Program-made: the position numbers and the translations under genes
DNA from: Candidatus Omnitrophota bacterium
Lineage (GTDB): Bacteria; Omnitrophota; Gorgyraeia; B26-G9
Length of the DNA: 64,000 bases
Reading direction: 5' to 3'
NCBI GenBank assembly: GCA_043826565.1
Contig: JBDRPX010000015.1
Location: 67,317 to 131,316, forward strand
Notes under the pieces: model-generated
What the model was told of the DNA's origin: nothing
Database searches by the model: none
What the model saw: the letters and a program-made list of their open reading frames with translations, nothing else
Shown here: piece after piece, positions 28,836-62,440 of the stretch
How positions within the stretch are numbered: the stretch's first letter is position 1
Layout: every line of letters starts with the position of its first letter

Positions 28836-28839
28836 AAAA

Positions 28840-28874: not shown

Positions 28875-28884
28875 AAGGTAGATC

Positions 28885-45024: not shown

Positions 45025-45315
45025 TTGAGAAAGCGAACTATTATTATCAAATATGCGATCCTTGTCCTGATCATGGCATTGATACTTTTAGCCGCGTTGA
45101 ATATTCTGGCAAGCCGGTCGATCAGTCAAATAGCTCCGATAAAAGAGCTTGAATTCCAGAGCCAAAGCAAATTAGGGGGGCTGGAAGTTTCCGAAGAACT
45201 GGGTGAAAAATATAAACAGGATACACAGGCTTATGAAGCCTTAGCTGTAGAATTAAAAAAAAGTGTTTTGAAGATGAGAGAATTGCAAAAAACAATAAAT
45301 CCGGAACTTTTGTGA
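45025..45315 (+). CDS. Small hypothetical membrane protein (TTG start)
   Basis: 96 aa with one TM plus coiled coil; start codon uncertain. Confidence 0.3.
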   Translation: MRKRTIIIKYAILVLIMALILLAALNILASRSISQIAPIKELEFQSQSKLGGLEVSEELGEKYKQDTQAYEALAVELKKSVLKMRELQKTINPELL

Positions 45316-45350
45316 TAACAAACAGTTGCGGTTTACAGTGCCACGCACTA

Positions 45351-45379
45351 TTGCGAGCCTTTATATAGTATGGTATACT
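45351..45379 (+). promoter_or_regulatory. Candidate promoter: -35 TTGCGA, 17-nt spacer, TGg-TATACT extended -10
   Basis: TTGCGA 45351-45356; TG 45371-45372; TATACT 45374-45379; would give a ~235-nt leader before ATG 45624. Confidence 0.4.
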
Positions 45380-45575
45380 TTTAGTAGAGGAAATAGTAGG
45401 TGTGTTAAAGGCAAACTCAGCGGAAGCTGAGGACGCAAAGCCGTGCGTCCTGGAGATATTATCGGGATTGGCAGGTTACAAACAGTCAAAAGATATATCT
45501 CAGGCATTGTTTGCCTGGGATTTTTTTTTGAAAGGAAGTCAAAGTGCCACGCACCCGCCCGTCGGAGACGGGCGA

Positions 45576-45610
45576 ATGACAAATGACAAATGACAAATGA
45601 CAAATGACAA
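45576..45610 (+). repeat. Perfect tandem heptamer (ATGACAA)x5 abutting the RBS of gene 45624
   Basis: Five exact copies 45576-45610, followed by atAGGGGGttaatATG. Confidence 0.95.
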
Positions 45611-45623
45611 ATAGGGGGTTAAT

Positions 45624-46632: not shown

Positions 46633-49600
46633 ATGAAGATGATGATTAAAAAAACAATTGGTGTGCTACTGGTAGTATTGCTTGTGGTTTTCGGCTTAGC
46701 CAAAGCAGGATATCTGCAGGAAGCCGGTACCTTTCTGCAGGATTCCTGGAATTCGGGCACGAGTTCGACTGTGGCGGTGCATCCGGGCAATCAAAGTAAT
46801 TGGTCGCGCTATACTTCCCGGGACTCAAATATCCTTACTGCCGGAGGGTCAATTTATTTAGCGCCGAATACATTTACGGTGACCGATACCTCGGATACGG
46901 ATTTTGCAAAAGGCACATTAAATAATGTAATTATCAGCGGAACCGGTAATGGTTCTCAGCTGGAACTGACCTCCAGCGTTACGGACCCGTTTGCTTCTCA
47001 ATTAGGTGAATGGTTAAATTTGCCGTCTATACCCGCTCCGGGATTATTTTCTACCTATACCAAAATGGGCAATTATATTTATTGTTTGTTTGGCTCCGGG
47101 GACGGAAAACAGTTCGGCCGCTTTAATCTTACCAGTAAAACCTGGGAATTTTTAACGCCGATTCCGGTGGCGGTAGCGGTTGGGGCAACAATCACTAACG
47201 ACGGAGAATATATTTATGCTTTGCGCGGTTCCGGTTCAAGAGACGCGTATTTTTATCTGCCTCCGGAAGGGCCTGATCCGGACCCGGCAAATACTTTATT
47301 TTCTGTAGCTTCTCCGGCTCCCGGAGAATGGAAGCAATTTCCATCTCTAACTTCCGGGGTTAATTATGGATCTAATATTGTGCGTACCGGCGGTACGCTA
47401 AGCAGTAAGTCCGGAGCTTTATACGCGATGTGCGGATCCGGATCAACAACATTTGTTAAATATGATCCGAATATCGGCGGCGGAGTATGGATGGGCAGAA
47501 GTTCCACACCGGCTACGATCGGAGAAGGCGGAGCATTAGCCTACAAGCCCGGAAGTAATTTTATATACGCGGCCCGGGGATCCCAGACAGATACATTCTG
47601 GAGATATAATATCAGCGCAAATACTTGGGATACCAGCCTTGCGGCAGTTCCTGATCTAGATCCTTCAAATACAACGACAAATATAAATGTTAGATTTTGG
47701 CAGGGTTCGGACCTGTGGTATCCGGGATCAGGTGATTATGTTTATGCCGCGGGTATGTATGATGAATATGACAGCAGTACGGTTTACCGGCGTCAAAACC
47801 GAAGCTTTTTTAAATACGGGCCGTTAAGCGGCGCGGCAACCTGGACCAGATTACCGGATGTTCCGTCATATCTTGGCGCGTATAAATTTATTATTTATGA
47901 TCCGGATGCCGGCGGCCCGACAGAAGGTGATGAACTGCAGTATTTTTCCGGGAAAAATTATACCCGGCCGTGGCGGTTTGATAATGTGAATGAAAAATGG
48001 ATAACCTTATCACAGGCACCGTATGACGCGCCTTATGGTATTAATATTTGCTATCCGGGAACCGGAGATTTTCTTTATTATATTCCGGCAGACGGTAATT
48101 ATGATTTTTACCGCTATTCAATTTCCGGAAATTCCTGGGAAAGGCTTAAAAATCTTCCTTCCGGCCCCAGATACGCGGGTACACGTTTATGTTATTTAAA
48201 CGGATATATTTATTGTTTAAAAGGATATACCTCCGGGTCTTTTTATCGTTATGCCATAGCGCAAACCCCGGGGGCAGACAATTGGGACTATTTAGCTAAT
48301 TATCCGTATACTGACTTAGAATACGGGTCCAGTATTATCGGAGTGCAGATTGCCGGCCAGGATTATATTTACGGGTTAAGAGGGAATGAATATGGTAATT
48401 TTTATCGCTATAATGTTAGCACAGATACCTGGGCAGACACAATGGCCACAATGCCGGATCAGCCGGATGGAAGTTATTTAATATTTCCGAATTATGCGGA
48501 GCCCAACGGATACAAATATATTTACGCGGCGCGCGGCCAGTACAGCAATGACATGTATAAATACGGGCCCATAGAAGAAGATGAAAATTTAACCGATGAT
48601 ATTGACGGAGATTTCCAGACTAAAGGCCGCTGGACCCAGGTTACGGATACGCCCAGTTATTTTCGTTTTTGTGAGAATTACGGAGCTTGTTTGTCTTATC
48701 AGGGAAGCGGGCCGTATATTTACGCGTTTACCGGAGATAATGATGATATTGGGTACGCGTTTAGGTTTGCCCGCTATAATATGGATACTGATGCCTGGGA
48801 TGACCTTGATTCTACTCCCATGAATCAGACTTATTTTGATTGTACCTCAACAAGTGATGCTATCTTCGCGGTGGGTTATTATGGCTATGGCAATTTCTGG
48901 AAATATGATTTGGCTACCCAGCAATGGAATGAGCCGGTTATTGATCAATACCGCAATGAGTTGGGGACTACGGTAGTTGATAGTAATAATAATATTTATC
49001 TGGTATACGGCGGCCGGGACGGGTACCATTATTCACATTTCTGGAAGTTTGATCCGAATCAAAACCGGTGGACGGATATTATTCGCGCGCCGTTTGTTTT
49101 AGCGGCGGGAGTTAAAGCAGAATATCTAACAAGTACAAATTCTATCTATGTTACCGAGGGCCGCGGATCAACGACATTATACAAATATAATGTCGGGACA
49201 AAGGTCTGGAGTGAATGCGCGGAATCTCCGATACGGTTTTGGCGCGGCGCGCAGTTAGCCGCGGATGATGCGAACAATATTATTTATGCTATGCCGGGCT
49301 GGGATATTAGAAATTTTTATGTATATGATGCCGCGGATTACTGGAATCAGCTGGAAAATCCGCCGAAAGCTCATGAAGATATGATCGAAGGCATGGAAGT
49401 AGCAAATGGAAAAGTTTATTTGCTTAGCGGTGATGACGAAGCAGAGTTTTATGAATACTCCCCTTTGCCGACAAATACCTGGCTGCCGAAAACAAAGGTC
49501 GGAGACCCGACTGGTGATGGGTCGGTTTTTGAAACTACCAGCCATGGCGGAGGATTGTTTTATCCGGGCTCCGGAGATTTGATGTATTGTATTACCCGGT

Positions 49601-52600
49601 CCAGCAATAAAGTGCTTTTTACATATTCTCTATCTACGGACCGGTGGAATCAGCTTGCCGAACTGCCGATCGACCCGTATGACCGCCCGACATCAATAGT
49701 GGCCGCGGGAAAACCATGGTTTTTTATCTTTAATTATCGCTGGGATGATTATCTGATGCGCTATCATGTGGCGGAGAATATTTATGACCTGCCGTCTTTT
49801 TTACCCGCGGAAATCAATGAGGATTGCGCTTTAGCCGGGTATAAAGGATATATTTATTATCTAAACAGAGATACGTTTTACAGATATAATGCCCAGCTTA
49901 ATCTTTGGTCGGAGTTGCTGGCTCCGCCGATAACATTTGATGAAACTGATACAACAATGCGGATTGTTGAGTTCGAAGGGCAGCCGTACGCGTATGTTAC
50001 CGGAGGTAATAACCGAAATGGATTTTACCGTTATAGTATTACCAGCAATACCTGGCAGGAATTACCTTCTCCGCCGGCGAATTTTGAAGTGGGAACTTCC
50101 ATGACGCAAAAAGGAAATTATTTATATATACTGCGGGGAGAGTCAAATGCGTTTTGGGAATACAATCTGGTAAATAATACCTGGGCTTTGGCAACAGATA
50201 CGCCGCAATATGTGTATTATGGCGGGCAGGTTGTGTATCCGGGCAGCGGGGATTATGTTTATGTTATGACCGGAAATCATACGGCAAATCTTTACCGGTA
50301 CAATACCGTGGCCAAAAATTGGACCGCGCGGACTCCGGCTCCGGTACCTATGCATAATGCGCATTCAGAATTGATCTATCCCGGTTTTGGCGATTATTTA
50401 TTTGTCCTGCAGGGAGCCTCATATAATACTGATCAAGGTTCATATGTATTTATGCGGTATAAAATGTCTGATCCGGGCGGGGATACCTGGGAAGAACTTA
50501 CGCCGTCGTCTTTTGCGGTTAGGCATCCGGGAACTTTGATCTGGGGGGACGGAGAATATTTTTATGGTATAGAAGGCCGGGGGAACAAGCTGGCCAGATA
50601 TTATTCTTACTGTTTCGGCGACTATACTTCGGGAGTAAAAGAGATCGGCAATCACAGCGGATGGGGCGATGTCAGCTGGATTTTTAACAGTGTGCAGTCG
50701 GCAGCAATTGCTTTTCGCAGCGGGGATACTTTGGATCTATCCGATGCGGATGTCTGGTCTAATGTGGCCGATGTTACTAATGGCCAGGACTTAAGTAATT
50801 CCGCGGCTTGCGCGAATACGGATAAATATATCCAGTATAAGATTACTTTTTCCACGGATGAATTAGCGGAGAGCCCGGCCATTGAACAAATGCAGTTTGA
50901 ATGGGAAAAATATCCGATTTCTCAGACTTTGACCTCCTCTATTTACGATACTACCTTTCTTACCAACAGAATCCTTGATCTTTCCTGGCAGGAAACTCTG
51001 CCCCTGGGAACGGACGCGCGTTTTCAGATGCGCACTTCCGCGGATAATAATACCTGGTCCAGCTGGATGGGAATTGCCGCGGCGCAGGTTTTAACTAATG
51101 ACCTCTCTGATGAGGATGATTATGCCAGATCAAGTAAGATCCAAATAGCTTCCGGGATAGCAAAACTGTTTAAAGAATTAGCTGATTTTAAATATATGCA
51201 GACGATTACAGTGGATAATCTGGGCGGCCCTTTAGAGACCAATAAATTAGTAAATGTGGTGATCCCCAAGACAAATACCCATTTTTGGAATAATGTCAGA
51301 GATGACGGATATGATGTTCGTTTTTATGACGGAACCCAGAAATATGAATATAAACTGATTGATTTTGACCGGGCAAATAAAACCGGAGCGTTCTTAGTTC
51401 AGATCCCGTCTCTGCCCGCGGATGATGAGCTGTCAATATATATGCTTTATGACAGTCCTTCCGCGGATACAGAAAGCAATGAGGCTTTGCGTATTGATGT
51501 AAGAGAATCTGATCTGGCCGCGAGATGGAATTTTGATCAGACTATTGGAAATACTGTCCCGGATTCCTCCGGCAATAATAATAACGGATATTTTATGAGC
51601 AGTCCGTTATGGACCACCGAAGGAAAATTCGGCGGAGCTTTAAGCTGTGACGGCCTTGATGATTATGTAACAGTTCCGAGCACCTCGTCTTTACAGCTTA
51701 CCGGAGATATGACCTTGGGTATCTGGGTGTATCCGGAAAATGTCGGCACTAACTGGTATATGCAGACAATCCATAAAAGATATTGGGGAGAATTTTCCTT
51801 TGGTATTTACCGGGCCGGAAGTTTAGGCTATCTTCAGGGGTATGGTACGAGTTCTTATAATTCCTGGTCGCTTTCCAATTATAATAAAGTTCAAAATAAT
51901 AAATGGCATCATCTGGTTGTGGTCCGAGACGGCACAACCAAGCAGATCACTTCCTATATTAACGGAGTACAGCAGCGTTCCTATAATTATGCCAGCGGCT
52001 ATCAGCCGGTAACCTCATATGATCCGGTAATGATCATGCGCGGATATACCGGGTATGAAATTAAAGGAAAAGTAGACCATACAACAATTCATAATGTTCC
52101 GCTTACGGCCGCGGAAGTTGAACAGCTCTACTTAGGGTATGATCTAAGCAACCCGGAAGATTTGTCGATAAATGAAAGTTCCGCTACCTGTGTAAATCTC
52201 GCGGGATGGTTATATAAAGTTCCGATTACGGTTACGAATAATTCCGCCAGCATCGTAAATAATTCGATTATAACCATAAATGCCGAACAATGGCATGAAT
52301 TCTGGCAGCATGTAAACAGCGACGGCAGTGATGTGCGGGCAGTTGATTCTGATGATACTACCCTGCTTACTTATTATCTGCAGGAATTTGATTCCGCGGC
52401 AAAGACCGGCAGGATCAATGTAGAGATTCCTACGATCCCCGCGTCTTCAAGCAAGACGATCTATTTGTATTACGGTAATAGCGGGGCCAGTAATATTGGA
52501 AACAGTTCTCTAAACTTAGAATGGGATGTGGGTACGTATCCTGATTTTAGCGGATGGTCACGTCCTTCAACCTGGAACACAAACACCGGCATATACATGA

Positions 52601-55600
52601 TGGGCGGATACGCGCGTTTAGGCTTGAGCGCGGACACGCAAAAGACAGTAATCAATCTTCCGGCCGGAACCTATGAAATTGAATTCAATTATTATTATAT
52701 TGATTCCTGGGATTCAGAATACGGCCAGTTATATTGGAACGGTACCAGGATTTGGAATGTATCCAGCAGTACGATCCCGTCCGGGCCTGATGTCGGCGGA
52801 TACAGTACTTACGGCGACCGCGTGGACCATCCGGCGTTTAAGGTTACGGTTGTTCATCCCGGAGGGAACGCGGTTTTACGTTTTGCTTCCACGACAAATG
52901 AAAGCACGGTTAATGAAAGTTTTGGTGTGAATAATATTATTATCCGCACATTACAGTCCTCAACATTGGAAGTTACTCCGCCGTATGTAACGGAAAATAA
53001 TATTTATGATACCGGAACTTATTACACGGACAATCCGGTTGTTCAGCCGATATTGGGTGTTTTTTATGAAGGTAATATATCAAATTTCCAGGCGGTTACT
53101 ACAGAGCCGTCAAATACGGATATCGGGTTCCAGGTTTCGGCGGACGGGTATAACTGGTATTGGTATTCAACCGGTGATTGGCGAAAAACAGAACTGGGAT
53201 ATCTTAATACAAACAGCGCGGCCCAGATAAATTCTAACCTGGTGAATTTTCAGTCAAAATTCCCGGCTGGTGATTTTTATTACCGGGCATTTTTAAATTC
53301 TAGCGGTACGAATACCCCGGAACTCAATGAGGTGAGAATTACTTTAACCAGTCCGCCGAGTTATTATTTTGACGCGGCGGCCGGAGAGGCTGTAAATACG
53401 ATCAATGAAGATTGTCTGGATGACCGGTATATTCAATACCGGACAACTTTGTATTCCTACGGAGAAAGTACGCCGGTTATTGACAGTGTCAGTATTGATT
53501 ATATTAAATCAGAAGTAAATGTAACCTCCCCTAACGGCGGTGAGGAATGGCCGGTTGCTTCGGCTCAAACAATCACCTGGACTTCCGCGGGTGTTGATGA
53601 CGCGGCTTCGCATGTGAAGATAGAATATTCATCAAATAACGGAACCAGCTGGAATACGATAATTGGTTCCACGGCAAATGACGGCAGTTATCCCTGGACT
53701 GTGGAAAATTCCGCTTCTCCTAATTGTTTAGTCCGGATCACTTCTGTGGAATTTCCCACGGTTATTGATCAGTCTGACGCGGTATTTCAGATCATGGGCC
53801 TTATTCTTACCGCGCCCAATGGCGGCCAAGTATGGGAAGTAAACCGGATCCATACGATTACCTGGACATCTTCAGGTACGGTCAGTAATGAATTAACTAT
53901 TGAATATTCTACGAATAATGGCACCAGCTGGGCCGGAACTTTGGCAACTCAGCGGCCGAATACCGGTACTACTAATTGCCAGATGCCGAATGTTAATTCT
54001 GATGCGGTTCGGATCCGGATATTTGACTCCCTTAATACTAATGTTATTGATGTTTCCGACGCGGTTATGTCCATTGTTCCGGCACCGGTGATCACCATAA
54101 ATACTCCGAACGGCGCAGAGCAATGGATCGTGGGCGATACTTATACCATAGATTGGCAAACCAATTCCCGCCAGTTCTCGGCGAATGTAATATTGGAATA
54201 TTCCAAAGATAATTTCAGTACAACTGTTCCCATTATTACTAAGAGTATTGGAACTGCGGCCGGCCCAAACAATAATGATGACATTTCCGGAAGCCATGAC
54301 TGGGTAGTTCCGGAAGATATATCCACGACAGTAAAGATAAGAATAAGGGAAGAAAGTATTCCTCCGGCACGGGATACGCAGAGTATTATCTGGGATATGT
54401 CGGATAATAATTTTTCGCTTATTTTCCCGTATATTACGATAAGTTCACCGCAGGAAGAGGTTACCTGGGTTTCCGGAGATGCTCATGATATTACCTGGAC
54501 ATTCTTTGGAACAGTAAGCAATGATCTGCTCCTTGAATATACAACTGACGGGTCTAATTTCACGACTATTGACGATAACCAAGCTAATGACGGATTATAT
54601 TCCTGGACTGTTCCGGATGAAGATTCAGCTACGGTGCAGGTAAGAATTACGGATAATGCCTGGAATCAGGTTACGGGGATTTCTCCGGTATTTACAATTA
54701 TTCCCTATCCGGTGCTTAAAGTTTTATATCCGAACGGCGGTGAAGTATTGGCGATTGGAGCTACTTATGAACTTCGCTGGACTTCTTTTGGCCAGAAATT
54801 AGCCTCCGGCGGCGCGGATTATTTTAATATTGATATCTGGTATTCCGCGAATAATGGAACTACCTGGGCTGTTGTCAGTTTAGGCCAGGCTAATGACGGG
54901 TCTTTGAACTGGCAGACGGCTGATGCCGAAACCACGGAGGCTTTAGTCAAAGTTGAAGATAGTAATGACCTGCTGATTGTGGATACTTCGGATGCTGTTT
55001 TTGAAATCACAAATCCGGTTCTGACAATTACTTCTCCGAACGGCGCGGAAGGGTGGTACGCAACCGGTACGTATGATATAACCTGGGATTCTTTGGGAGC
55101 GGTCAGCAATAATCTGTTATTAGAGTATTCAACTAATGCCGGTGTTTCCTGGACAACGATTGCCGGCAGCCAGAATAATGATCATGTTTATTCCTGGACG
55201 GTTGCCGATGTTATTTCTGATCAGGTCAAAATAAAAATTACCGATAGCAATCGTCCTTTGGTTTGGGATGATTCTGATGCTAATTTCAGTATTCTTGCTC
55301 CGACAATTACAGTTACCGTACCAAATGGCGGAGAAGAATGGATTATCGGAACAAGCCATGGTATAGAATGGGCCACACAAGGCGGAGATGTTAACGCGGT
55401 TAAAGATAATCTGACGATCCAATATTCATCTAACGGAGGAGGGTCTTGGAATGATCTATGGACCGGCTTGGCAAATTCCGGAAGTCAGGCGTGGGAAATT
55501 CCGGATGATTTGTCCGATAACTGTCTGATCAGGATTTTTGACGCGTTCCGTCCGGCTACCATAGACCAGTCTGACGCGATGTTCGCGATTAAGATTCCGT

Positions 55601-58600
55601 ATGTGGATATTATTGCGCCGAACGGCGGAGAAAGCTGGCCGATCGGAACAACTCAGAGTATAAACTGGGGGTCTTTGGGAACAGTCAGCAATAATCTGGT
55701 TATTGAATATTCTAAAGATAATTTTGTCAGCAACATTAATACAATTTCTACTTTTGAAGCAAATGACGGTTTATATGAATGGCTGTCTGTAGCGGATGAT
55801 TATTCGGTAACAGTTAAAATCAGGATCACTGACGCGGATAATCCGTCAATTACCGATACCTCAGAAACAGCGTTTACGATCGCGTATCCGTTAATTACGG
55901 TTACGGTGCCGAATGGCGGAGAAATATGGACCGTCGGTGATACGGAAAATATTACCTGGACTAACACCGGAAGCGTGGGCAATGATCTGAAGATCGAATA
56001 CTCTAAAGACAATTTTAACGCGGATACGAACATGATTATTGTTTCCACGGCAAACACCGGCAGTTACAGCTGGCCGTCAATCCCTAATGATGTTTCCGCT
56101 TCGGTAAGGGTACGGATTACGGATAATACCCGTCCGGTAGTTTGGGACAGATCTAACGGGAATTTTACGATTTTGCCGATTCCGGCAATTACGATTACCG
56201 CGCCCAATGGCGGAGAAATATGGCGTTATGGAACAACCCAGAGTATTACCTGGGAAGATAATGGCGGGTTGATTTCCAATAATCTGACCATAACATATTC
56301 TACGGATAATGGAACTACCTACACCGGAAGTATTATTACCGGAGCGGCAAATATCGGTTCCTACAGCTGGAACATTCCGGATGATGTACATCCGCAATGT
56401 TTTCTTAGGATCCAGGATGCGCAAAGGCCGTCGACAAATGACATTTCCGATGCGTCATTTATCATTGCTGATCCGCGGATCACCATAACTTCACCTAATG
56501 GCGGAGAAGTCTGGGCGGTTGCTGATCAGGCGCCGATAACCTGGACTACCGAAGGCACGATCAGTAATAATCTGATCCTGCAGTATTCCGGTAACGGAGG
56601 ATCCAGTTATACGCAGGTTGCTTCCGGAATAAGTAATACCGGAGCATATACCTGGACAGTTCCGGATGATGTTACGACTAATGCTTTATTTGAAATAACT
56701 GACGGAAACCGGCCGGTAAGCAAGGATATTTCGAATGCGGTATTCCGGATCATTGCTATGCCGCTAATTGATATTACAACTCCGGACGGCGGCGAAGAAT
56801 TTGTTCTGGGAGATACCTCATCTATTACCTGGACATGGTTAGGTTTATCTATTTCAAATAATTTATTGATTGATTATTCCGGAGACGGATTTGCTACGCG
56901 CAGAGTAATTGCTTCCGTGGAAGCAAATGACGGTTTGTATACCTGGGCGATCCCGGATGACGCGCTTACCGGCTCGACACTTAAGATGAGGATCACTGAC
57001 GGTAATCGTACGGAAATAACTAATCAGTCCGGCGGATATTTTAGAATTCGCGGTGGTTTTACAATCCTTTCACCTAACGGCGGTGAAAACTGGGTAGCTA
57101 AATCGGATCATTCAGTTACCTGGCAGACAAAAGGAACTATTTCTAGGGTAAAACTTGAATACAGTACGGATAACGGATTGAACTGGTCTATGGTCGCTTC
57201 GAATGTGTCTAATGCCGGAGCCTACACCTGGATATTACCGGATGCGCAGTCTGTGCAGGCAAGAATCCGGATTTCCGATGTGGATGATCCAACTGTAAAT
57301 GACCAGAATGATGCGACGTTTAATATTGTTTATGCTTCGGTTGTGTTTAATGTTTTGGACTATGATACGTTGCAGCATTTGCAGGATATAAATACGAATG
57401 AGCCGTATACCGGATGGAATGATTCCGGAGTTAATTCTCCGATTAGCCGGATGCAGCAGTACCCCTATGGCAACTATACGACATTTTTCTCTAAAACCAA
57501 CTACATTGATAATAGTGTTAGCTGGGTAGCGCCAAAATCCGGGACCGATACGTATGTTATCAATACCTATCTGGAAAACTCCGCGTCCGCGCAGGTTACA
57601 TGGGAAGCGGTATTGACCTACAGTTTTAGCCCGGCCACGGATTCCTTAAGCGGTGTCGGTTCTTTGCAGAGAAAAGGAAAACTTGTCGGAACTAATGAAT
57701 TAGAACGCGTGGATATGGGGCCGGCAGTATTGACTATTTATGAACCGAATTCCACGGTGATTAGGAATCTAGTTTCCGCTAATGCTCCCGGAGATAATGG
57801 TATGTATAACTTGATGCTTACTAATACTGATTTTGAATCCGGACAAGTATATCCGGCAACTTTGACAATTACTTATAGATCAAGAGAATATACTTCCAGT
57901 GCCAGTATTGATGTTGGTTCGGAGATTCTGCAGTATGAGTTCTTTACCCAGACAGCTACTCAATTGGCCGCTTCTGTGGCGCAGATTGAAACAGCAGTCG
58001 GGGCGGGGACTCAAGCGACAATTAACAAGCTGGATGAAACCAGAGCATCTTTAGAAAATAAAGTTGACAGTTCCGCGGCAACTGTAATCGGGGTAGTAAC
58101 AGATACCAAAACAGAGCTTACGGCTAATCTTTCTTCAACCCGGGAAAGCTTAGAAGGTACCTTGGCGGCTACCAGCGAAGATTTGCAGACTACTATGAAA
58201 TCAAACATTCTCAACCGTGAGAAATCGGTCAAGGGCGGAGCTGATCTGATGATCCGATATAGAACATATTCCGGCTTAATTCCCAAGATCGATGTTTATG
58301 ATACTCAGAATGTCCAGAGAATTGATAAAGGACTTATGACTGAGATGGGCACAACCGGTATTTATGAATACAAGGTCAAGTTCTATAACAGTTGGGGGCA
58401 GGGAGATTGTACAATTGTTTGTTCGGAAGAGACCAAGGGGACTTTAGACGCATTGACAATTACGATTGTTAGGTCTACAGTAGATGATATAGCCGGACAG
58501 ACTTCGGCGATCTTAGGTTCAACCTCAGGATTAAGTGATATTGGCCAGGTGGTGGATATCTTAGGTAATCAGATCGGCCTGATTGAAGCATCATTCTCCA

Positions 58601-58890
58601 GGATCGGTAAAGAGATTGTTTCGGAGGCTCAGGGCGGCTCGAAGAGGGACAAGGAACTGGAAGTTATTTATAATCAGCTGAGCAGTATGGGAGCGCAGCT
58701 GAAAGATCTGGGACAGCTGGAATCTGTCGGCTTAGGCGGAAAAGCCGGAGTTGCGGAAGAAAAGAAGAAGGATATAGTATATCTTAAAAACAAAACTCAG
58801 GAAATGAAGGCAATGCTTGAGTTGAATAATAAGATGATCGAAAACATCAGCGCGAAACCCGTCACTCAAGTATGGTATGAATTTAAATAA
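46633..58890 (+). CDS. Giant (4,085 aa) multi-domain surface protein: Kelch-like beta-propellers, 2x DUF2341-like, LamG-like, 13 tandem ~97-aa repeats, C-terminal coiled-coil-like region
   Basis: Start at ATG 46633 (RBS GGAGAGAG); N-terminal signal/TM; uninterrupted 12.3-kb ORF; domain motifs read from the translation. Confidence 0.85.
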   Translation: MKMMIKKTIGVLLVVLLVVFGLAKAGYLQEAGTFLQDSWNSGTSSTVAVHPGNQSNWSRYTSRDSNILTAGGSIYLAPNTFTVTDTSDTDFAKGTLNNVIISGTGNGSQLELTSSVTDPFASQLGEWLNLPSIPAPGLFSTYTKMGNYIYCLFGSGDGKQFGRFNLTSKTWEFLTPIPVAVAVGATITNDGEYIYALRGSGSRDAYFYLPPEGPDPDPANTLFSVASPAPGEWKQFPSLTSGVNYGSNIVRTGGTLSSKSGALYAMCGSGSTTFVKYDPNIGGGVWMGRSSTPATIGEGGALAYKPGSNFIYAARGSQTDTFWRYNISANTWDTSLAAVPDLDPSNTTTNINVRFWQGSDLWYPGSGDYVYAAGMYDEYDSSTVYRRQNRSFFKYGPLSGAATWTRLPDVPSYLGAYKFIIYDPDAGGPTEGDELQYFSGKNYTRPWRFDNVNEKWITLSQAPYDAPYGINICYPGTGDFLYYIPADGNYDFYRYSISGNSWERLKNLPSGPRYAGTRLCYLNGYIYCLKGYTSGSFYRYAIAQTPGADNWDYLANYPYTDLEYGSSIIGVQIAGQDYIYGLRGNEYGNFYRYNVSTDTWADTMATMPDQPDGSYLIFPNYAEPNGYKYIYAARGQYSNDMYKYGPIEEDENLTDDIDGDFQTKGRWTQVTDTPSYFRFCENYGACLSYQGSGPYIYAFTGDNDDIGYAFRFARYNMDTDAWDDLDSTPMNQTYFDCTSTSDAIFAVGYYGYGNFWKYDLATQQWNEPVIDQYRNELGTTVVDSNNNIYLVYGGRDGYHYSHFWKFDPNQNRWTDIIRAPFVLAAGVKAEYLTSTNSIYVTEGRGSTTLYKYNVGTKVWSECAESPIRFWRGAQLAADDANNIIYAMPGWDIRNFYVYDAADYWNQLENPPKAHEDMIEGMEVANGKVYLLSGDDEAEFYEYSPLPTNTWLPKTKVGDPTGDGSVFETTSHGGGLFYPGSGDLMYCITRSSNKVLFTYSLSTDRWNQLAELPIDPYDRPTSIVAAGKPWFFIFNYRWDDYLMRYHVAENIYDLPSFLPAEINEDCALAGYKGYIYYLNRDTFYRYNAQLNLWSELLAPPITFDETDTTMRIVEFEGQPYAYVTGGNNRNGFYRYSITSNTWQELPSPPANFEVGTSMTQKGNYLYILRGESNAFWEYNLVNNTWALATDTPQYVYYGGQVVYPGSGDYVYVMTGNHTANLYRYNTVAKNWTARTPAPVPMHNAHSELIYPGFGDYLFVLQGASYNTDQGSYVFMRYKMSDPGGDTWEELTPSSFAVRHPGTLIWGDGEYFYGIEGRGNKLARYYSYCFGDYTSGVKEIGNHSGWGDVSWIFNSVQSAAIAFRSGDTLDLSDADVWSNVADVTNGQDLSNSAACANTDKYIQYKITFSTDELAESPAIEQMQFEWEKYPISQTLTSSIYDTTFLTNRILDLSWQETLPLGTDARFQMRTSADNNTWSSWMGIAAAQVLTNDLSDEDDYARSSKIQIASGIAKLFKELADFKYMQTITVDNLGGPLETNKLVNVVIPKTNTHFWNNVRDDGYDVRFYDGTQKYEYKLIDFDRANKTGAFLVQIPSLPADDELSIYMLYDSPSADTESNEALRIDVRESDLAARWNFDQTIGNTVPDSSGNNNNGYFMSSPLWTTEGKFGGALSCDGLDDYVTVPSTSSLQLTGDMTLGIWVYPENVGTNWYMQTIHKRYWGEFSFGIYRAGSLGYLQGYGTSSYNSWSLSNYNKVQNNKWHHLVVVRDGTTKQITSYINGVQQRSYNYASGYQPVTSYDPVMIMRGYTGYEIKGKVDHTTIHNVPLTAAEVEQLYLGYDLSNPEDLSINESSATCVNLAGWLYKVPITVTNNSASIVNNSIITINAEQWHEFWQHVNSDGSDVRAVDSDDTTLLTYYLQEFDSAAKTGRINVEIPTIPASSSKTIYLYYGNSGASNIGNSSLNLEWDVGTYPDFSGWSRPSTWNTNTGIYMMGGYARLGLSADTQKTVINLPAGTYEIEFNYYYIDSWDSEYGQLYWNGTRIWNVSSSTIPSGPDVGGYSTYGDRVDHPAFKVTVVHPGGNAVLRFASTTNESTVNESFGVNNIIIRTLQSSTLEVTPPYVTENNIYDTGTYYTDNPVVQPILGVFYEGNISNFQAVTTEPSNTDIGFQVSADGYNWYWYSTGDWRKTELGYLNTNSAAQINSNLVNFQSKFPAGDFYYRAFLNSSGTNTPELNEVRITLTSPPSYYFDAAAGEAVNTINEDCLDDRYIQYRTTLYSYGESTPVIDSVSIDYIKSEVNVTSPNGGEEWPVASAQTITWTSAGVDDAASHVKIEYSSNNGTSWNTIIGSTANDGSYPWTVENSASPNCLVRITSVEFPTVIDQSDAVFQIMGLILTAPNGGQVWEVNRIHTITWTSSGTVSNELTIEYSTNNGTSWAGTLATQRPNTGTTNCQMPNVNSDAVRIRIFDSLNTNVIDVSDAVMSIVPAPVITINTPNGAEQWIVGDTYTIDWQTNSRQFSANVILEYSKDNFSTTVPIITKSIGTAAGPNNNDDISGSHDWVVPEDISTTVKIRIREESIPPARDTQSIIWDMSDNNFSLIFPYITISSPQEEVTWVSGDAHDITWTFFGTVSNDLLLEYTTDGSNFTTIDDNQANDGLYSWTVPDEDSATVQVRITDNAWNQVTGISPVFTIIPYPVLKVLYPNGGEVLAIGATYELRWTSFGQKLASGGADYFNIDIWYSANNGTTWAVVSLGQANDGSLNWQTADAETTEALVKVEDSNDLLIVDTSDAVFEITNPVLTITSPNGAEGWYATGTYDITWDSLGAVSNNLLLEYSTNAGVSWTTIAGSQNNDHVYSWTVADVISDQVKIKITDSNRPLVWDDSDANFSILAPTITVTVPNGGEEWIIGTSHGIEWATQGGDVNAVKDNLTIQYSSNGGGSWNDLWTGLANSGSQAWEIPDDLSDNCLIRIFDAFRPATIDQSDAMFAIKIPYVDIIAPNGGESWPIGTTQSINWGSLGTVSNNLVIEYSKDNFVSNINTISTFEANDGLYEWLSVADDYSVTVKIRITDADNPSITDTSETAFTIAYPLITVTVPNGGEIWTVGDTENITWTNTGSVGNDLKIEYSKDNFNADTNMIIVSTANTGSYSWPSIPNDVSASVRVRITDNTRPVVWDRSNGNFTILPIPAITITAPNGGEIWRYGTTQSITWEDNGGLISNNLTITYSTDNGTTYTGSIITGAANIGSYSWNIPDDVHPQCFLRIQDAQRPSTNDISDASFIIADPRITITSPNGGEVWAVADQAPITWTTEGTISNNLILQYSGNGGSSYTQVASGISNTGAYTWTVPDDVTTNALFEITDGNRPVSKDISNAVFRIIAMPLIDITTPDGGEEFVLGDTSSITWTWLGLSISNNLLIDYSGDGFATRRVIASVEANDGLYTWAIPDDALTGSTLKMRITDGNRTEITNQSGGYFRIRGGFTILSPNGGENWVAKSDHSVTWQTKGTISRVKLEYSTDNGLNWSMVASNVSNAGAYTWILPDAQSVQARIRISDVDDPTVNDQNDATFNIVYASVVFNVLDYDTLQHLQDINTNEPYTGWNDSGVNSPISRMQQYPYGNYTTFFSKTNYIDNSVSWVAPKSGTDTYVINTYLENSASAQVTWEAVLTYSFSPATDSLSGVGSLQRKGKLVGTNELERVDMGPAVLTIYEPNSTVIRNLVSANAPGDNGMYNLMLTNTDFESGQVYPATLTITYRSREYTSSASIDVGSEILQYEFFTQTATQLAASVAQIETAVGAGTQATINKLDETRASLENKVDSSAATVIGVVTDTKTELTANLSSTRESLEGTLAATSEDLQTTMKSNILNREKSVKGGADLMIRYRTYSGLIPKIDVYDTQNVQRIDKGLMTEMGTTGIYEYKVKFYNSWGQGDCTIVCSEETKGTLDALTITIVRSTVDDIAGQTSAILGSTSGLSDIGQVVDILGNQIGLIEASFSRIGKEIVSEAQGGSKRDKELEVIYNQLSSMGAQLKDLGQLESVGLGGKAGVAEEKKKDIVYLKNKTQEMKAMLELNNKMIENISAKPVTQVWYEFK
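53515..57340 (+). repeat. 13 intragenic tandem repeats (~290 nt / ~97 aa each) with consensus I[TD][IV]TSPNGGE.W..G....ITW...G..S..L.I.YS.D.G......I.......G.Y.W..P
   Basis: Repeat starts near 53515, 53800, 54090, 54430, 54715, 55020, 55300, 55600, 55890, 56180, 56470, 56765 and 57055. Confidence 0.85.
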
Positions 58891-59070: not shown

Positions 59071-59103
59071 TATAAAAATCAAAAAGATAAAACATTATAC
59101 AAT

Positions 59104-59138
59104 TAACATTTAACAATTAACAATTAATATTTAACATT
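59104..59138 (+). repeat. Tandem AT-rich heptamers (TAACATT TAACAAT TAACAAT TAATATT TAACATT) abutting the RBS of gene 59161
   Basis: Read from sequence; followed by tctatatAGGGAGGGaaaccATG. Confidence 0.85.
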
Positions 59139-59160
59139 TATCTATATAGGGAGGGAAACC

Positions 59161-60038: not shown

Positions 60039-60932
60039 ATGCCTGAAGAGAAATTAAAATTTCTGATTGTTGAAGACAACTTAGCTGACCGGGAAAAAAT
60101 AGCCTCAATGGTGCAGAGTTTTGGGTCTAAATGCGCTTTTGCTTCTAAATCCCGGGAGATCGCGGAGATTCTTAAAAAAGAAGAATACGCGCTGGTTTTG
60201 ACGGCATTGACTTTACCTGACGGAAACGCGGTAAATGTTACCAGGCAGGCTTTGGAGATATATCCGTCAATAAGTGTTATTGTCATGACCTCTTATTATT
60301 ATATTGAGGAAGCGATCCGGGCCATGGCCATCGGTGCGTACGGGTATATAACCAAACCTTTTAACCGGGTAGAGGTGGAAGTTGTCCTGGCCCGGGCCAT
60401 AGAAAGATATTATATTTTAGCCGGCGAAGATAGAAAAAAACACTATATGCAGCTTTCGGTTAAAGACGGCCTTACCGGGATTTATAACCGCAGATTCCTA
60501 GACCTTCATCTAAATCATAAAATAGACAGCCTGAAAAACGAGATAACCAAAAAGTTTTCCGTAATGATGGTTGATATTGATGATTTTAAGAAATTCAATG
60601 ATACTCAGGGACATCAGGCCGGAGATAAATTGTTGTGCGGGGTAACTGATATATTTAAAGATTCTTTGCGATTTTCTACAAATGACGTTATTTGCCGCTA
60701 TGGCGGAGAAGAGTTTTGCCTTGTTCTGGATAAAGCTGATAAAAAATCGGCGGCCTTAATCGCGGAAAGAGTAAGAGAAGTAGCGGAATTTTCTTTGCCG
60801 GTAACGCTGAGTATCGGGCTGGCTACTTATCCGGAAGACGGCATGAATAAAGAAAAATTGATCGCCAGCGCGGACAAGGCTTTATATAAAGCCAAAAATA
60901 CCGGTAAAAACAAGGTTGTCCTAAGCGCGTAA
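60039..60932 (+). CDS. Response regulator with REC + GGDEF (diguanylate cyclase) domains
   Basis: REC (LIVEDN...D), GGDEF with intact RYGGEEF active site. Confidence 0.9.
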   Translation: MPEEKLKFLIVEDNLADREKIASMVQSFGSKCAFASKSREIAEILKKEEYALVLTALTLPDGNAVNVTRQALEIYPSISVIVMTSYYYIEEAIRAMAIGAYGYITKPFNRVEVEVVLARAIERYYILAGEDRKKHYMQLSVKDGLTGIYNRRFLDLHLNHKIDSLKNEITKKFSVMMVDIDDFKKFNDTQGHQAGDKLLCGVTDIFKDSLRFSTNDVICRYGGEEFCLVLDKADKKSAALIAERVREVAEFSLPVTLSIGLATYPEDGMNKEKLIASADKALYKAKNTGKNKVVLSA

Positions 60933-61020: not shown

Positions 61021-61248
61021 ATGAGAGTTTCTGTTGTAGATGTAAAAGAAATCATTTTTGAGGATGATGTCGAGAGTGTTATCCTGCCCGGAAGGGACGG
61101 GGAACTCGGGGTTCTTGATTTGCACGAAGCATTTCTTTATCGGCTGAAAAAAGGGGTGTTAAAGATAAATAATTCTTTAAGTTTGCCGGTGGAAGACGGA
61201 GTTGCCAAAATGCAAAACAATAGACTTGTTATTTTAGTCGAACGCTAA
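61021..61248 (+). CDS. atpC: F-type ATP synthase epsilon subunit, short form (N-terminal beta-sandwich only)
   Basis: GRDGELGVLDLHEAFLYRLKKGVLKI aligns with E. coli epsilon [26 protein letters not shown]; only 75 aa. Confidence 0.6.
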   Translation: MRVSVVDVKEIIFEDDVESVILPGRDGELGVLDLHEAFLYRLKKGVLKINNSLSLPVEDGVAKMQNNRLVILVER

Positions 61249-61356
61249 ACTTAAAAAACTGATAATTGATAATTGAAAGTCGAATGTTGGACTGTTTTTA
61301 AATAGTTTTTCCAACTCTCAATTTTCAGTTGTCAATGTTCAATCGGTTTGAAAATT

Positions 61357-61566
61357 ATGCAGAATATTACAGTTATATTATTAATGTTATTAAGTACTTT
61401 GGGGCCGGCATTAGTAATTGCGATGGTCGGCCGCGGCGCGGTAAGGGCTGTGGCCAGGAATCCCGGGGCTTCTCCGAAAATTCTCTTAGCCATGATTACG
61501 GCTTTTATTTTCGCGGAAGCAATTGCGGTGCTGGCATTACTGGTGGTCTATAATTTATTTAAATAA
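61357..61566 (+). CDS. atpE: F-type ATP synthase subunit c
   Basis: Two-TM hairpin with AMVGRGAVRAVARNPGA loop and conserved carboxylate E in helix 2 (IFAEAIAV); ATG 61357 preferred over TTG 61348. Confidence 0.8.
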   Translation: MQNITVILLMLLSTLGPALVIAMVGRGAVRAVARNPGASPKILLAMITAFIFAEAIAVLALLVVYNLFK

Positions 61567-61659
61567 TTGAAAGTAGAAAGTAGATAATTGATGGTTGAGA
61601 TTTGTAAAAATGGTTGTTTTCCAATATTCAATACTCAATTTTCAATATTCTAACAGAAT

Positions 61660-62409
61660 ATGATTATTCAGCTTATTATATTTCAAATCCTTACTTTTGC
61701 CGCGATCGTGCTGTTTTTGCGGTTCTTTTTCTCGCGCAATGTCAATGCCGCGCTAAGACGCTTAAAGGAATTGCAGAATGAAAACCAGCTTATTGAAGCT
61801 AAGCTTAAAGCAATGCTTGAACAGGCGGAAAAAGAAACAGCGGAAAAATTAGAAAAAGCAAAAGCAGAGGCGAAAAAAATTACGGATGAAGCCGTAACCA
61901 TGGGCAAGATATTACAGCGGAACCAGGAAGATAAAGGTAAGATCGAAGCTGATAATATGATTAATGACGCAAAAGAAAAGGTAAAAAAACTTCACAGTGA
62001 ATTAATGTTAAGAATAAACGCGTTTGCCTTAAAATACGCGGTGGAAGTTATTAAGTATACGATTAGTAAGAGGGTAACAGACAGAGTTCATTATGAGCTT
62101 ATCAATGATGTTATTGAGGAGATCAGTAAGGTTGACAAGGAAAAATTTTCCATAAAGACCAATAAGGTGGAAATTATTACTAATATCGCGTTGACCGATG
62201 AGGAGCTTGGCAGATTAAGGGTAGTATTGTTCTCTAAGTTAGAGAACAATGTGGAAATAGATCAAAAGATCGATCCGGCGATGCTGGGAGGGATGATCCT
62301 CAGGATCGGAGCTTTTGTTATTAACGGAACCCTGGAAAATAAGTTAGAAAAAGTTGCCCAAATGTTTGAAAGGGATAAAAAGCTTATCGAAATAGAACAG
62401 CAATTATAA
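61660..62409 (+). CDS. atpF: F-type ATP synthase b/delta fusion subunit
   Basis: N-terminal TM plus b-type coiled coil; C-terminal half matches the delta/OSCP C-terminus (IDPAMLGGMILRIGAFVINGTLENKLEKV). Confidence 0.7.
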   Translation: MIIQLIIFQILTFAAIVLFLRFFFSRNVNAALRRLKELQNENQLIEAKLKAMLEQAEKETAEKLEKAKAEAKKITDEAVTMGKILQRNQEDKGKIEADNMINDAKEKVKKLHSELMLRINAFALKYAVEVIKYTISKRVTDRVHYELINDVIEEISKVDKEKFSIKTNKVEIITNIALTDEELGRLRVVLFSKLENNVEIDQKIDPAMLGGMILRIGAFVINGTLENKLEKVAQMFERDKKLIEIEQQL

Positions 62410-62440
62410 TGCCTAATGCAATGAATTCATGGAAGGAAAA

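Follow-up and report, generated by a model that had tools for sequence, protein, structure and literature searches.

A giant lectin-type protein of Omnitrophota with a putative inner-membrane partner and a c-di-GMP riboswitch leader: a candidate tethered adhesin

A 64-kb stretch of a Candidatus Omnitrophota genome (assembly GCA_043826565.1, contig JBDRPX010000015.1, positions 67,317 to 131,316; hereafter the window) contains one gene of 12.3 kb, whose product of 4,085 amino acids (aa) we call the giant. Our favoured reading, to which we assign a probability of about 0.55, is that the giant is a lectin-headed adhesin, regulated by cyclic di-GMP (c-di-GMP), exported by the Sec pathway and tethered by its C-terminal domain to a partner protein in the inner membrane. 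In particular, we propose that it works as a two-protein unit with the 272-aa product of the gene that follows it. Omnitrophota are ultrasmall, uncultured and probably host-dependent or predatory, and their mode of attachment is an open question. Attention has so far gone to giant open reading frames (ORFs) of more than 10,000 aa (10 kaa), which are mostly unique and hard to compare. The giant belongs to a conserved orthologous family, set by its C-terminal domain, that is phylum-wide and includes Candidatus Velamenicoccus archaeovorus LiM, described as the phylum's cultured member and one for which proteomes exist, in PRIDE under PXD025008. Because the family is conserved, carries ligand-binding modules and has a defined partner and a defined regulatory RNA, it offers a tractable handle on attachment.

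A homolog search with the last 516 aa of the giant returned Omnitrophota proteins alone, mostly as fragments at contig ends. An exhaustive HMMER search of 1.84 billion representatives with a hidden Markov model (HMM) of this domain matched 261 proteins, with E<=1e-30 for 115. Many of the matches lie at the extreme end of proteins of 4.0-5.7 kaa. The 516 aa match neither a Pfam family nor a PDB sequence. In the AlphaFold2 (AF2) model of a natural fusion protein (P0020, see below) the domain consists of immunoglobulin (Ig)-like sandwiches, a long helix, a further sandwich, a helical bundle and a terminal strand. Foldseek comparison of that model with the PDB gave generic multi-Ig or macroglobulin-like matches alone (TM-score ~0.1) and no specific fold. 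When one genome per species was scanned, 77 genomic loci of the family were found, nearly all labelled Omnitrophota or, for metagenome-assembled genomes (MAGs) with generic names, PVC/'Planctomycetales'. The nearest locus, from 'PVC group bacterium Gpa_23', is 71% identical, and that of LiM, on CP019384 at about 1,749,361-1,770,881, 48%.

The rest of the architecture was mapped by laying the window's own segments and repeat HMMs onto family representatives. About 28 full-length representatives (4.0-5.2 kaa) keep the giant's whole domain order: an N-terminal domain, ~20 Kelch blades, a beta-rich module (X1), DUF2341/LamG domains, a second beta-rich region (X2, in some), Kre9 repeats and the C-terminal domain. 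Kre9 repeats number 13 in most orthologs (range 10-15), and the copy number of DUF2341 and LamG differs between members. Distant members retain the C-terminal domain alone, behind other repeat arrays. Some MAGs hold two paralogs. That of Gpa_23 (JAAEQR01) has two giant genes, at loci L009 and L043, with C-terminal domains 37% identical. A separate ATPase cluster lies behind each of them, and the two alpha subunits are 66% identical; either giant and ATPase were duplicated together or the bin is mixed. In further two-paralog MAGs (L040/L044, L038/L079, L021/L059) one copy lies in an ATPase/pilus locus and the other elsewhere.

The 272-aa ORF that follows (NCBI locus tag ABII88_04460; the genes of the locus are annotated there as hypothetical) belongs to no Pfam or NCBIfam family, and gene order and natural fusions mark it as the putative dedicated partner of the giant. 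It lies directly after the giant gene in 64 of the 69 loci with enough downstream sequence. Moreover, the two proteins are fused in frame in 20 of 164 family proteins. For example, the partner matches by BLASTP the C-terminal extensions of P0020 (37% identity, 6e-46) and P0013 (56%, 1e-76), which in the alignment of C-terminal domains begin past the conserved end ...KPVTQTWYE. The motif PVxQxWYE[YF] stands at most 12 residues from the C-terminus in 90 family proteins and is internal in 8, with ~190-246 aa after it. The fusion junction always falls at partner residue 30-31, that is, at the predicted mature N-terminus after AQA|N. The fusions are not read-through artefacts, because both the intergenic spacer and the partner's signal peptide are skipped at the junction. 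At the other end of the partner, the tail predicted to be cytoplasmic carries a conserved motif, (E/A)DIE(K/D)(I/L)(I/M), found in 36 homologs.

The AF2 model of P0020 has a mean predicted local distance difference test (pLDDT) score of 75, a predicted template-modelling (pTM) score of 0.36 and one 85-residue helix. In it, the last strand of the giant part (residues 608-614) runs straight into the beta-sandwich of the partner part (617-688, pLDDT >90), which is followed by helices and then the transmembrane helix. We infer that the partner keeps the giant tied to the inner membrane; docking probably occurs by adding the giant's terminal strand to the partner's sandwich. In most relatives a gene for a zinc metalloprotease-like protein (Peptidase_MA_2) comes after that of the partner (L002 3038-3877, L003 3444-4244 and many of L004-L079), and its product could process or release the tethered giant there; the window has no such gene. 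The spacer between giant and partner genes holds an array of AACATTT-like heptamers, and an AATGACA array lies in the leader described below; neither is conserved in a relative (L081), and the arrays could be spacing elements, phase-variation elements or protein-binding arrays.

The gene itself is intact. It runs from 46633 to 58890 on the forward strand with no internal stop in the ORF listing or the translation. The longest frame opens at 46585 and closes at 58890 (+), giving 4,101 aa from its first ATG; we kept 46633 as the start because the exact 4,085-aa protein is on record, whereas a sequence look-up found no exact record of the 4,101-aa version. The identical 4,085-aa protein is called on a Logan assembly contig (L001, run SRR26275510). 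The single unbroken 12.3-kb ORF claimed in an earlier reading of the window, made from the letters alone (the sequence-only reading), holds. The mature protein would have ~4,060 aa and 449 kDa, and is acidic (pI 4.4).

The sequence-only reading had also proposed an order of domains: a signal or transmembrane segment, ~1,200 aa of Kelch-like blades, two DUF2341-like domains flanking a LamG/ConA-like lectin domain, a 330-aa beta-rich region, 13 tandem repeats and a C-terminal region of ~500 aa. All of its domain coordinates lie within ~50 nt of ours (Table 1), and Kelch, DUF2341, Laminin_G_3 and PF10342 each exceed the Pfam gathering score (scores for the giant are whole-protein bits, with matches listed to E 0.1). 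The N-terminal hydrophobic segment, ending in AKA|G, is the sole one in the giant, and family homologs begin with N-termini of an equivalent n-h-AxA type. The conserved domain that follows may be a separate mobile module. It also opens apparent non-family proteins at metagenome loci L088-L104, sharing the pattern F[VL]QTDWSGG...HP.N.TGW; many of these weaker matches are probably other proteins with that domain alone. No neighbouring genes matched at these loci, and no riboswitch was found in the six scanned (L088, L091-L093, L101, L102).

In the Kelch region, Kelch_6 (78.6 vs 25.3 bits), Kelch_KLHDC2 (58.6 vs 50) and Kelch_3 (40.2 vs 22), all of Pfam clan CL0186, pass their gathering scores, as does Kelch_4. 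An iterated HMM places 23 blades there at a spacing of 43-68 aa, which would suffice for about 3-4 propellers. Further along, DUF2341 (PF10102) scores 81.4 against 23.4 bits in two stretches and Laminin_G_3 (PF13385) 74 against 27.6; AF2 models all three domains of this cassette (aa 1516-1985) as confident beta-sandwich or jelly-roll domains, so both copies of DUF2341 and the LamG domain between them stand as described. Foldseek matches of the LamG model include the lectin-like subdomain of the clostridial neurotoxin Hc region (a receptor-binding domain) and the carbohydrate-binding domain 4 of the GH43 arabinanase AbnA (5hon_A, TM-score 0.79). Elsewhere, DUF2341 is found in proteins that also carry GH32, GH43, beta-helix and type IX secretion system tail domains. 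A sequence search of the PDB with aa 1223-2296 gave nothing significant.

One beta-rich region had been proposed in the middle of the protein. Such a region exists (X2), yet there are two: X1, ahead of the DUF2341/LamG cassette, is present in at least 25 family members. The X1, X2 and N-terminal domains have no Pfam match even at E<=10, and the AF2 model of X2 is poor (pLDDT ~30) because the alignment lacks depth there. For the tandem repeats, Kre9_KNH (PF10342) scores 78.4 against 24.6 bits, with four stretches passing alone. The motif count agrees on 13 repeats, beginning at aa 2300 to 3481 and sharing the pattern SPNGGE.W...ITW...YS.DNG. They are 24-49% identical to one another in protein and 40-58% in nucleotide sequence. 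Tandem Repeats Finder (TRF) detected no tandem repeat inside the ORF, so the ~290-nt DNA periodicity once ascribed to it falls away and the periodicity lies in the protein motif. Exact DNA repeats within the ORF all stay below 20 nt. This divergence makes repeat collapse or expansion in assembly unlikely and, together with the same protein on the Logan contig, led us to reject the repeat region as an assembly artefact. The giant's Pfam matches include neither a hydrolase nor any other catalytic domain.

The suggested assignment to an adhesin- or lectin-like class gains support from these results, since the Pfam domains pass and LamG resembles carbohydrate- and receptor-binding jelly-rolls; the Ig-like domains, the Sec signal, the riboswitch and the pilus-type gene cluster agree with it. 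It is very improbable that the giant instead stays in the periplasm as a scaffold that organises the envelope or a trans-envelope machine. The tether on an inner-membrane partner and the lack of an outer-membrane sorting signal would suit such a role. However, an extended protein of ~449 kDa would, judging by its domain sizes, be far longer than the periplasm is wide, and its lectin, Kelch and DUF2341 modules are of kinds usually met outside the cell; it is size and domain types that tell against this view. The variable copy number of LamG and DUF2341 is likewise what a part facing the environment would show.

A c-di-GMP-I aptamer, matched over model positions 1-87 of 87, lies 140 nt upstream of the start codon of a Y1-like gene, and the giant gene begins 61 nt past the stop codon of that gene. 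It is the sole Rfam element in the window. A terminator hairpin follows and forms in the minimum-free-energy fold (z = -4.2). The promoter-like site, riboswitch and terminator are flanked as a unit by the two copies of AGTGCCACGCAC, and GTGCCACGCA occurs in the 64 kb at two places alone, those of both boxes. A regulator may bind to the box, and the HUH/Y1-like protein, which is co-transcribed, is one candidate. Aptamers of the same clan (48.9-62.8 bits) stand upstream of the giant gene, or of the Y1-like and giant genes, at four related loci (L081, L083, L085, L086). All five leaders share one plan: aptamer, 15-25 nt, terminator with T-run, one or two (G/A)T(G/A)CCACGCA boxes and a ribosome-binding site. 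Downstream of the giant gene, seven related loci contained no Rfam element. We conclude that a conserved c-di-GMP-I riboswitch is the predicted control element of an operon of the Y1-like and giant genes. The aptamer at L081 (4277-4363) scores best as the c-di-GMP-I-GGC variant (RF03167, 62.8 vs 59 bits), so ligand specificity may differ among orthologous leaders.

Judged by folding, the switch could turn expression on or off. The layout fits an OFF switch, because the terminator does not overlap the aptamer; a candidate antiterminator in the leader is weak (5-6 bp). Two ORFs border on this region. One of 96 aa (45025-45315) ends 85 nt upstream of the aptamer and has no Pfam match, and one of 80 aa (45361-45603, reverse strand), probably a spurious call, overlaps the riboswitch. 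The locus has further c-di-GMP nodes in its REC-GGDEF protein and in a downstream ATPase with an MshE-related motif (below).

The Y1-like protein, the first gene product behind the riboswitch, retains the HLH motif and stays below the cut-off of REP_Tyr_transpos (NCBIfam NF047646; 68.6 vs 80 bits, residues 4-138). Its gene lies directly upstream of the giant gene in five relatives (L081-L085), where the proteins are 39-45% identical and keep the transmembrane helix and coiled coil. Because of this synteny we regard the gene as a resident of the locus and reject a mobile insertion. Thus, where the giant had been framed as a little-studied adhesin with a transposase for a neighbour, the adhesin class stands, and the notion of a one-off beside a mobile gene does not. 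A second, unrelated-looking Y1_Tnp ORF lies at 34011-34679.

Taken in order, our favoured reading of a c-di-GMP-regulated, partner-tethered adhesin would work as follows. Transcription would start ~50 nt upstream of the riboswitch, and the terminator would decide on read-through into the Y1-like and giant genes. Sec would export the giant, whose signal peptide would then be removed. The C-terminal domain, ending in KPVTQxWYE[YF]K, would dock on the beta-sandwich of the partner, itself seated in the inner membrane by its C-terminal helix with the DIEKI-type peptide facing the cytoplasm; in some species the two are a single polypeptide. A long stalk would be built from the 13 Ig-like repeats together with the helices and Ig-like sandwiches of the C-terminal part, and a distal ligand-binding head from the DUF2341/LamG cassette (variable in copy number between species) and the Kelch propellers. 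The head would most likely bind glycans, be they on host cells, on prey cells or on a surface. Finally, the flanking machine of type IV filament type would probably provide passage through the outer membrane or act with the adhesin. The ORF and its domains, the family, the fusions and synteny of the partner, the conserved riboswitch and the make-up of the locus are observed; docking by strand addition, surface exposure, passage through the secretin and binding to glycans or hosts are what we infer.

Table 1. Features of the giant locus (positions in the window)
Feature	Position	Strand	Evidence and remarks
AAA_22 ATPase (ExeA/MshM-like)	38805..39626	+	Pfam 5.9e-16; opens the secretin module; homolog upstream in L087
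217-aa protein	39805..40458	+	no significant Pfam/NCBIfam match; weak homolog at same position in L087
Outer-membrane secretin (STN + Secretin_N + Secretin)	40463..42217	+	Pfam Secretin 5.8e-46
Two TPR proteins, 659 aa (with coiled coil) and 237 aa	42296..44985	+	Pfam TPR; homologs in L081, L084, L087
AGTGCCACGCAC box, copy 1	45337..45348	+	exact 12-nt direct repeat, just upstream of promoter-like site
Promoter-like site TTGCGA, 17-nt spacer, TG, TATACT	45351..45379	+	consensus scan alone, 9/12 plus extended -10 TG
c-di-GMP-I riboswitch aptamer	45400..45483	+	Rfam RF01051 (GEMM-I), 60.3 vs gathering 35 bits
Intrinsic-terminator hairpin (10 bp) and T9 run	45497..45530	+	hairpin 45497-45521; strongest terminator-like site of the region
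AGTGCCACGCAC box, copy 2	45543..45554	+	exact repeat; followed by GC hairpin and AATGACA heptamers (45575-45612, ~5x, before Y1-like start codon)
Y1_Tnp/RAYT-like protein, 315 aa	45624..46571	+	HUH-type N-terminal domain, transmembrane helix, C-terminal coiled coil; Y1_Tnp 1.9e-11
Sec-type signal peptide	46633..46707	+	MKMMIKK, hydrophobic core, AKA|G cleavage-type motif
Conserved N-terminal domain	46708..47040	+	alignments; family motif F[VL]QTDWSGG...HP.N.TGW.KY, here FLQDSWNSG
Kelch-like beta-propeller blades, ~23	47041..50601 (aa 137-1323)	+	Pfam; iterated HMM from own blades
X1, conserved beta-rich module	50608..51177 (aa 1326-1515)	+	motifs DKYIQY, GTDxRFQLRT; strongly conserved
DUF2341 copy 1	51178..51552	+	Pfam; AF2 beta-sandwich, pLDDT ~90
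LamG/ConA-like lectin domain (Laminin_G_3)	51553..52152	+	Pfam 1.8e-20; AF2 pLDDT >90
DUF2341 copy 2	52153..52587	+	best DUF2341 Pfam stretch; AF2
X2, beta-rich region	52588..53508 (aa 1986-2292)	+	X1-like submotifs; in a subset of relatives
Kre9/KNH-type Ig-like repeats, 13 in tandem, 95-114 aa each	53509..57339	+	Pfam, motif
Family-defining C-terminal domain, 516 aa	57340..58887	+	ends in conserved strand KPVTQxWYE[YF]K
AT-rich 7/14-nt tandem repeats (AACATTT-like, ~7x)	59091..59145		TRF; in the 270-nt giant-partner spacer
Partner, 272 aa	59161..59979	+	signal peptide AQA|N, beta-sandwich, helices, C-terminal transmembrane helix, charged linker, tail motif
REC-GGDEF response regulator, putative diguanylate cyclase	60039..60932	+	Pfam; GGEEF present; homologs in many related loci
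F-type ATPase genes epsilon (75 aa), c, b/delta fusion, alpha	61021..63913	+	Pfam

The giant gene stands amid genes of a secretion or pilus type. Those upstream in the locus share its orientation, and the neighbours named in the sequence-only reading (a Y1_Tnp-like protein of 315 aa, a secreted or transmembrane protein of 272 aa, a REC-GGDEF regulator and a secretin 4.4 kb upstream) are all present. The secretin has homologs upstream of the giant gene in L081 (52%) and L087 (49%); against the NCBIfam models for PilQ, GspD and MshL it stays below every cut-off (MshL 173.7 vs 250.2). For the AAA_22 ATPase the best NCBIfam model is TIGR03015, at 175 bits below a cut-off of 324. Downstream, the Logan contig L001 extends beyond the window and adds the gamma and beta subunits, a GspE/PilB-like ATPase (MshEN-T2SSE) and a T2SSF platform protein (PilC), with the ATPase cluster at 15439-20800 of that contig. 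In this downstream ATPase the MshE-related c-di-GMP-binding motif passes its NCBIfam model (57.3 vs 38), and the PilB, GspE and GspF scores are all below cut-off. Secretin, ATPase and platform proteins score as well against GspD/GspE/GspF as against PilQ/PilB/PilC. The machine is therefore best called a type IV filament/type II secretion system (T2SS)-like system, because no type-specific cut-off is reached.

The order of the locus is C-terminal domain, partner, [Peptidase_MA_2], [REC-GGDEF], epsilon, c, b/delta, alpha, gamma, beta, MshE-like ATPase and PilC, the bracketed genes being optional, with PilM/N after PilC in relatives. It is kept in 37 of the 48 loci with at least 9 kb downstream, 34 of which include the MshE-like gene. 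In the other 11, including that of LiM, giant and partner stand alone, without the ATPase cluster. The link to the pilus machine is thus frequent and not obligatory, as the LiM ortholog has no pilus or ATPase genes on its downstream side.

This setting raises the thought that the giant is borne on the tip of a type IV pilus (T4P) via minor pilins and is presented and retracted by the motor, which we consider unlikely. A tip-adhesin role has been proposed for PilY1 and MshQ, and the Kelch propellers of the giant presumably recall the PilY1 propeller. The gene also lies between the secretin module and the genes for the GspE/PilB-like ATPase and PilC. A place at the pilus tip, as adhesins, has been suggested for the large DUF2341 (MJ1470/arCOG03508) proteins of archaeal T4P loci (PMC4858521), and COG annotation places MJ1470/DUF2341 in a T4P-like system (PMC11809585). 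Yet the giant's N-terminus, MKMMIKKTIGVLLVVLLVVFGLAKA|GY, is a Sec signal of AxA type and no class III or pilin N-terminus. Neither Neisseria_PilC/PilY1 (PF05567) nor N_methyl is among its Pfam families at E up to 0.1. On these grounds we rejected its assignment both to the type IV pilins or pseudopilins and to the tip adhesins of the PilY1/PilC type. Besides, the junction with the transmembrane partner, covalent in 20 of 164 relatives, would hold the giant at the inner membrane unless cleaved, no minor-pilin genes are adjacent, and the LiM ortholog is not beside pilus genes. The window does encode three pilin-like proteins (N_methyl; two with ComP-type domains) at 8013-8444 (+), 12798-13304 (-) and 14711-15139 (-). 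They lie at least 30 kb upstream of the pilus-machine genes, scattered among housekeeping genes.

The equal scores against Gsp and Pil models, none of them at cut-off, are also compatible with a secreted product: the giant could be folded cargo of a T2SS-like machine, released as a polysaccharide-binding scaffold into the medium or onto prey, and the partner a mere docking chaperone in the periplasm or inner membrane before export. T2SS-like loci have been reported beside Omnitrophota giant genes (West-Roberts et al., bioRxiv 10.1101/2023.11.21.568195). The giant's signal peptide is cleavable and its own sequence includes no anchor, and in many relatives the Peptidase_MA_2 protein encoded after the partner could release it. 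We still hold this to be distinctly unlikely. A permanent tether is what the fusions to the transmembrane partner argue for, and they count against pilus-tip presentation and released cargo alike. Furthermore, the Peptidase_MA_2 gene is absent from the window, the giant has no detected hydrolase or catalytic domain, and its 13 Ig-like repeats would resemble the stalk of cell-attached adhesins.

The F-type ATPase genes invite a different idea, namely that giant and partner are the outer working end of a composite machine, in which this ATPase, the pilus motor or both act on the DIEKI motif of the partner and so move or tension the adhesin, as a functional analogue of Gli349/Gli521 of Mycoplasma mobile or of Agl-Glt/CglB of Myxococcus. 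The order giant, partner, ATPase, GspE/PilB-like ATPase recurs in those 37 loci, the partner carries a conserved peptide motif predicted to be cytoplasmic, and one MAG has two giant paralogs each with its own ATPase cluster. An a-subunit gene was not found among the called genes of the three clusters with Pfam-annotated gene lists (L001-L003), nor its Arg motif in 104 loci or the window. The main text of Seymour et al. 2023 (PMC10066038) groups the alpha subunit linked to type IVa pili (T4aP) with Mycoplasma type 2/3 gliding ATPases. However, the alpha subunit of the window passes the canonical AtpA models (NF009884 577.7 vs 554; TIGR00962 555.3 vs 484.45) and fails the MMOB1660 gliding family (NF045863, 420.9 vs 600 bits). 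Membership among Mycoplasma-type gliding ATPases is therefore unsupported. Its Walker A motif in the window reads GDRQTGRS, with Lys replaced by Arg. The c subunit retains its Glu carboxylate, and the complex may be the cell's ATP synthase with atpB elsewhere. Moreover, the MAG with two clusters could be a mixed bin, and co-location is not coupling. The canonical AtpA score and the 11 ATPase-free loci tell against strict coupling to a motor, and a motor-coupled leg is improbable.

A broader version of this thought is also a long shot: giant and partner could be the outward element of an unrecognised trans-envelope machine of Omnitrophota, whose cytoplasmic motors would work through the partner to extend, tension or move the adhesin on hosts. 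Such a machine would be encoded by one c-di-GMP-controlled supra-operon comprising the secretin module, the lectin-headed 449-kDa 'leg' tethered to an inner-membrane protein with a docking peptide in the cytoplasm, an F-type ATPase lacking subunit a and the filament motor. If true, it would be a diderm analogue of the Mycoplasma Gli349/Gli521 system with an F1-like motor.

Several points weigh against the tethered adhesin that we favour. Neither an outer-membrane anchor nor a sorting signal can be recognised in the giant, and a protein tethered at the inner membrane would need to thread the outer membrane, for which the secretin route is conjecture. Synteny with the upstream secretin holds in 2 of ~4 informative relatives. 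The LiM ortholog keeps the partner with neither pilus nor ATPase genes downstream. With regard to docking, the pTM of the fusion model is low, and strand complementation rests on the order of secondary-structure elements. Finally, an OFF switch would mean that c-di-GMP represses the giant, which is unusual for an adhesin.

Elsewhere the window encodes YidC, MnmG, ParA/ParB, SecA, Lnt, a TolC-like OEP and AcrB. It lies on the chromosome near the origin, in a bacterium that Lnt, the TolC-like OEP and the secretin mark as having two membranes. A MoxR, DUF58 and BatA-E-like (aerotolerance-type) operon occupies 23613-32268, including BatD (29615-31519) and a TPR/SH3 BatE-like protein, and is followed by a Schlafen AlbA_2/HATPase_c_4 gene (32412-33851).

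Among known systems, the closest in phylum are the published giant ORFs of Omnitrophota beside T2SS- or T4P-like loci (Kizina 2022; Seymour 2023, PMC10066038; West-Roberts 2023, bioRxiv 10.1101/2023.11.21.568195; Nielsen & Lui 2026). The term 'giant proteins' has been reserved for at least 10-30 kaa (West-Roberts 2023; Nielsen & Lui 2026), with numerous transmembrane regions and mostly a divergent SecA-DEAD domain (West-Roberts 2023). Those of Omnitrophota range from >10 to 147 kaa; SecA-DEAD or enzyme domains are frequent among them, and most have no relatives in sequence. Our protein is alike in being large and repeat-rich, with adhesion-type domains including Laminin_G_3, which is named in those publications as well, and in having gspD/E/F-like or pilus genes on its flanks and c-di-GMP components nearby. 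It differs in its size of 4.1 kaa, in having a signal peptide alone, and in belonging to an orthologous family with its own C-terminal domain and partner. We therefore rejected membership in the published class: the protein has 4,085 aa, one hydrophobic segment and no SecA_DEAD match (Pfam, E<=0.1), and the SecA of the window is a separate housekeeping gene (9878-12703). The terms Kelch, DUF2341 and secretin do not occur in West-Roberts et al.

The locus is exactly of the kind in Seymour et al. 2023, whose main text describes an unusual F-type ATPase co-located with T4aP genes in Omnitrophota and likens it to Mycoplasma gliding ATPases. Alike is the F-type ATPase operon, with the genes for a PilB/GspE-like ATPase and PilC immediately behind it; unlike is the alpha subunit of the window, which meets canonical AtpA cut-offs. 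That main text does not mention Kelch, and its passages on giants, pili and adhesins describe neither a 4-kaa protein nor the partner (the search left DUF2341, riboswitches and the supplement aside). In the archaeal T4P loci cited above, and in Patescibacteria, where DUF2341 proteins exceed 4,000 aa, the likeness is a large secreted DUF2341 protein, a type IV filament locus and an ultrasmall host-associated lineage. None of these proteins is described with a C-terminal docking domain, transmembrane partner, Kelch array or riboswitch, and homology may be confined to DUF2341/LamG.

Regulation and retention bring to mind other adhesins. LapA/LapD/LapG of Pseudomonas is a c-di-GMP-controlled adhesin system, and in Clostridioides c-di-GMP riboswitches control adhesins and pili. 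With such repeat adhesins the giant would share an Ig-like stalk, distal binding modules, c-di-GMP control and a dedicated retention partner. Adhesins of the LapA type are substrates of a type I secretion system (T1SS), held in a TolC-like pore and bearing RTX (repeats-in-toxin) repeats, whereas the giant would be tethered at its C-terminus to a bitopic inner-membrane protein. A T1SS RTX adhesin (LapA/SiiE type) was rejected, as HemolysinCabind is not among the giant's Pfam families and the scanned flanks hold no T1SS genes. The mannose-sensitive haemagglutinin (MSHA) system of Vibrio comprises MshL, MshM, MshN, MshE and MshG, of which MshE binds c-di-GMP, and has MshQ as a large accessory protein. 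The succession of an ExeA-like ATPase, secretin and TPR proteins and then an MshEN-ATPase and platform protein is alike in both. The difference is that the block of giant, partner and F-type ATPase is inserted between the two modules, with MshL below cut-off; the giant has no MshQ-named NCBIfam match. The TafC fimbrial protein (NCBIfam NF052521) was rejected too (47.3 vs 410 bits, in the LamG region alone).

Gli349 and Gli521 of Mycoplasma mobile are surface leg proteins of ~3-5 kaa with a single transmembrane anchor and an F1-like ATPase motor. The functional likeness would lie in a single-anchored surface protein of ~3-5 kaa together with an unusual F-type ATPase cluster; unlike them, the giant belongs to a diderm host and has Pfam-recognisable lectin, Kelch and Ig domains. 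Altogether, large adhesin-type proteins beside secretion or pilus genes in Omnitrophota, and repeat adhesins under c-di-GMP control, are already known in kind. The C-terminal-domain family, the bitopic partner with its putative cytoplasmic motif and its fusions, the riboswitch leader with CCACGCA boxes and the placement of this block in the ATPase/T4aP locus go unmentioned in the literature searched, which for Seymour et al. means the main text. The analysis thus adds giant, partner and Y1-like transmembrane protein to the published 'symbiotic ATPase/T4aP' locus as conserved components. Set beside the adhesins compared here, it suggests an unusual way of anchoring in a diderm: a C-terminal tether to a bitopic protein of the inner membrane.

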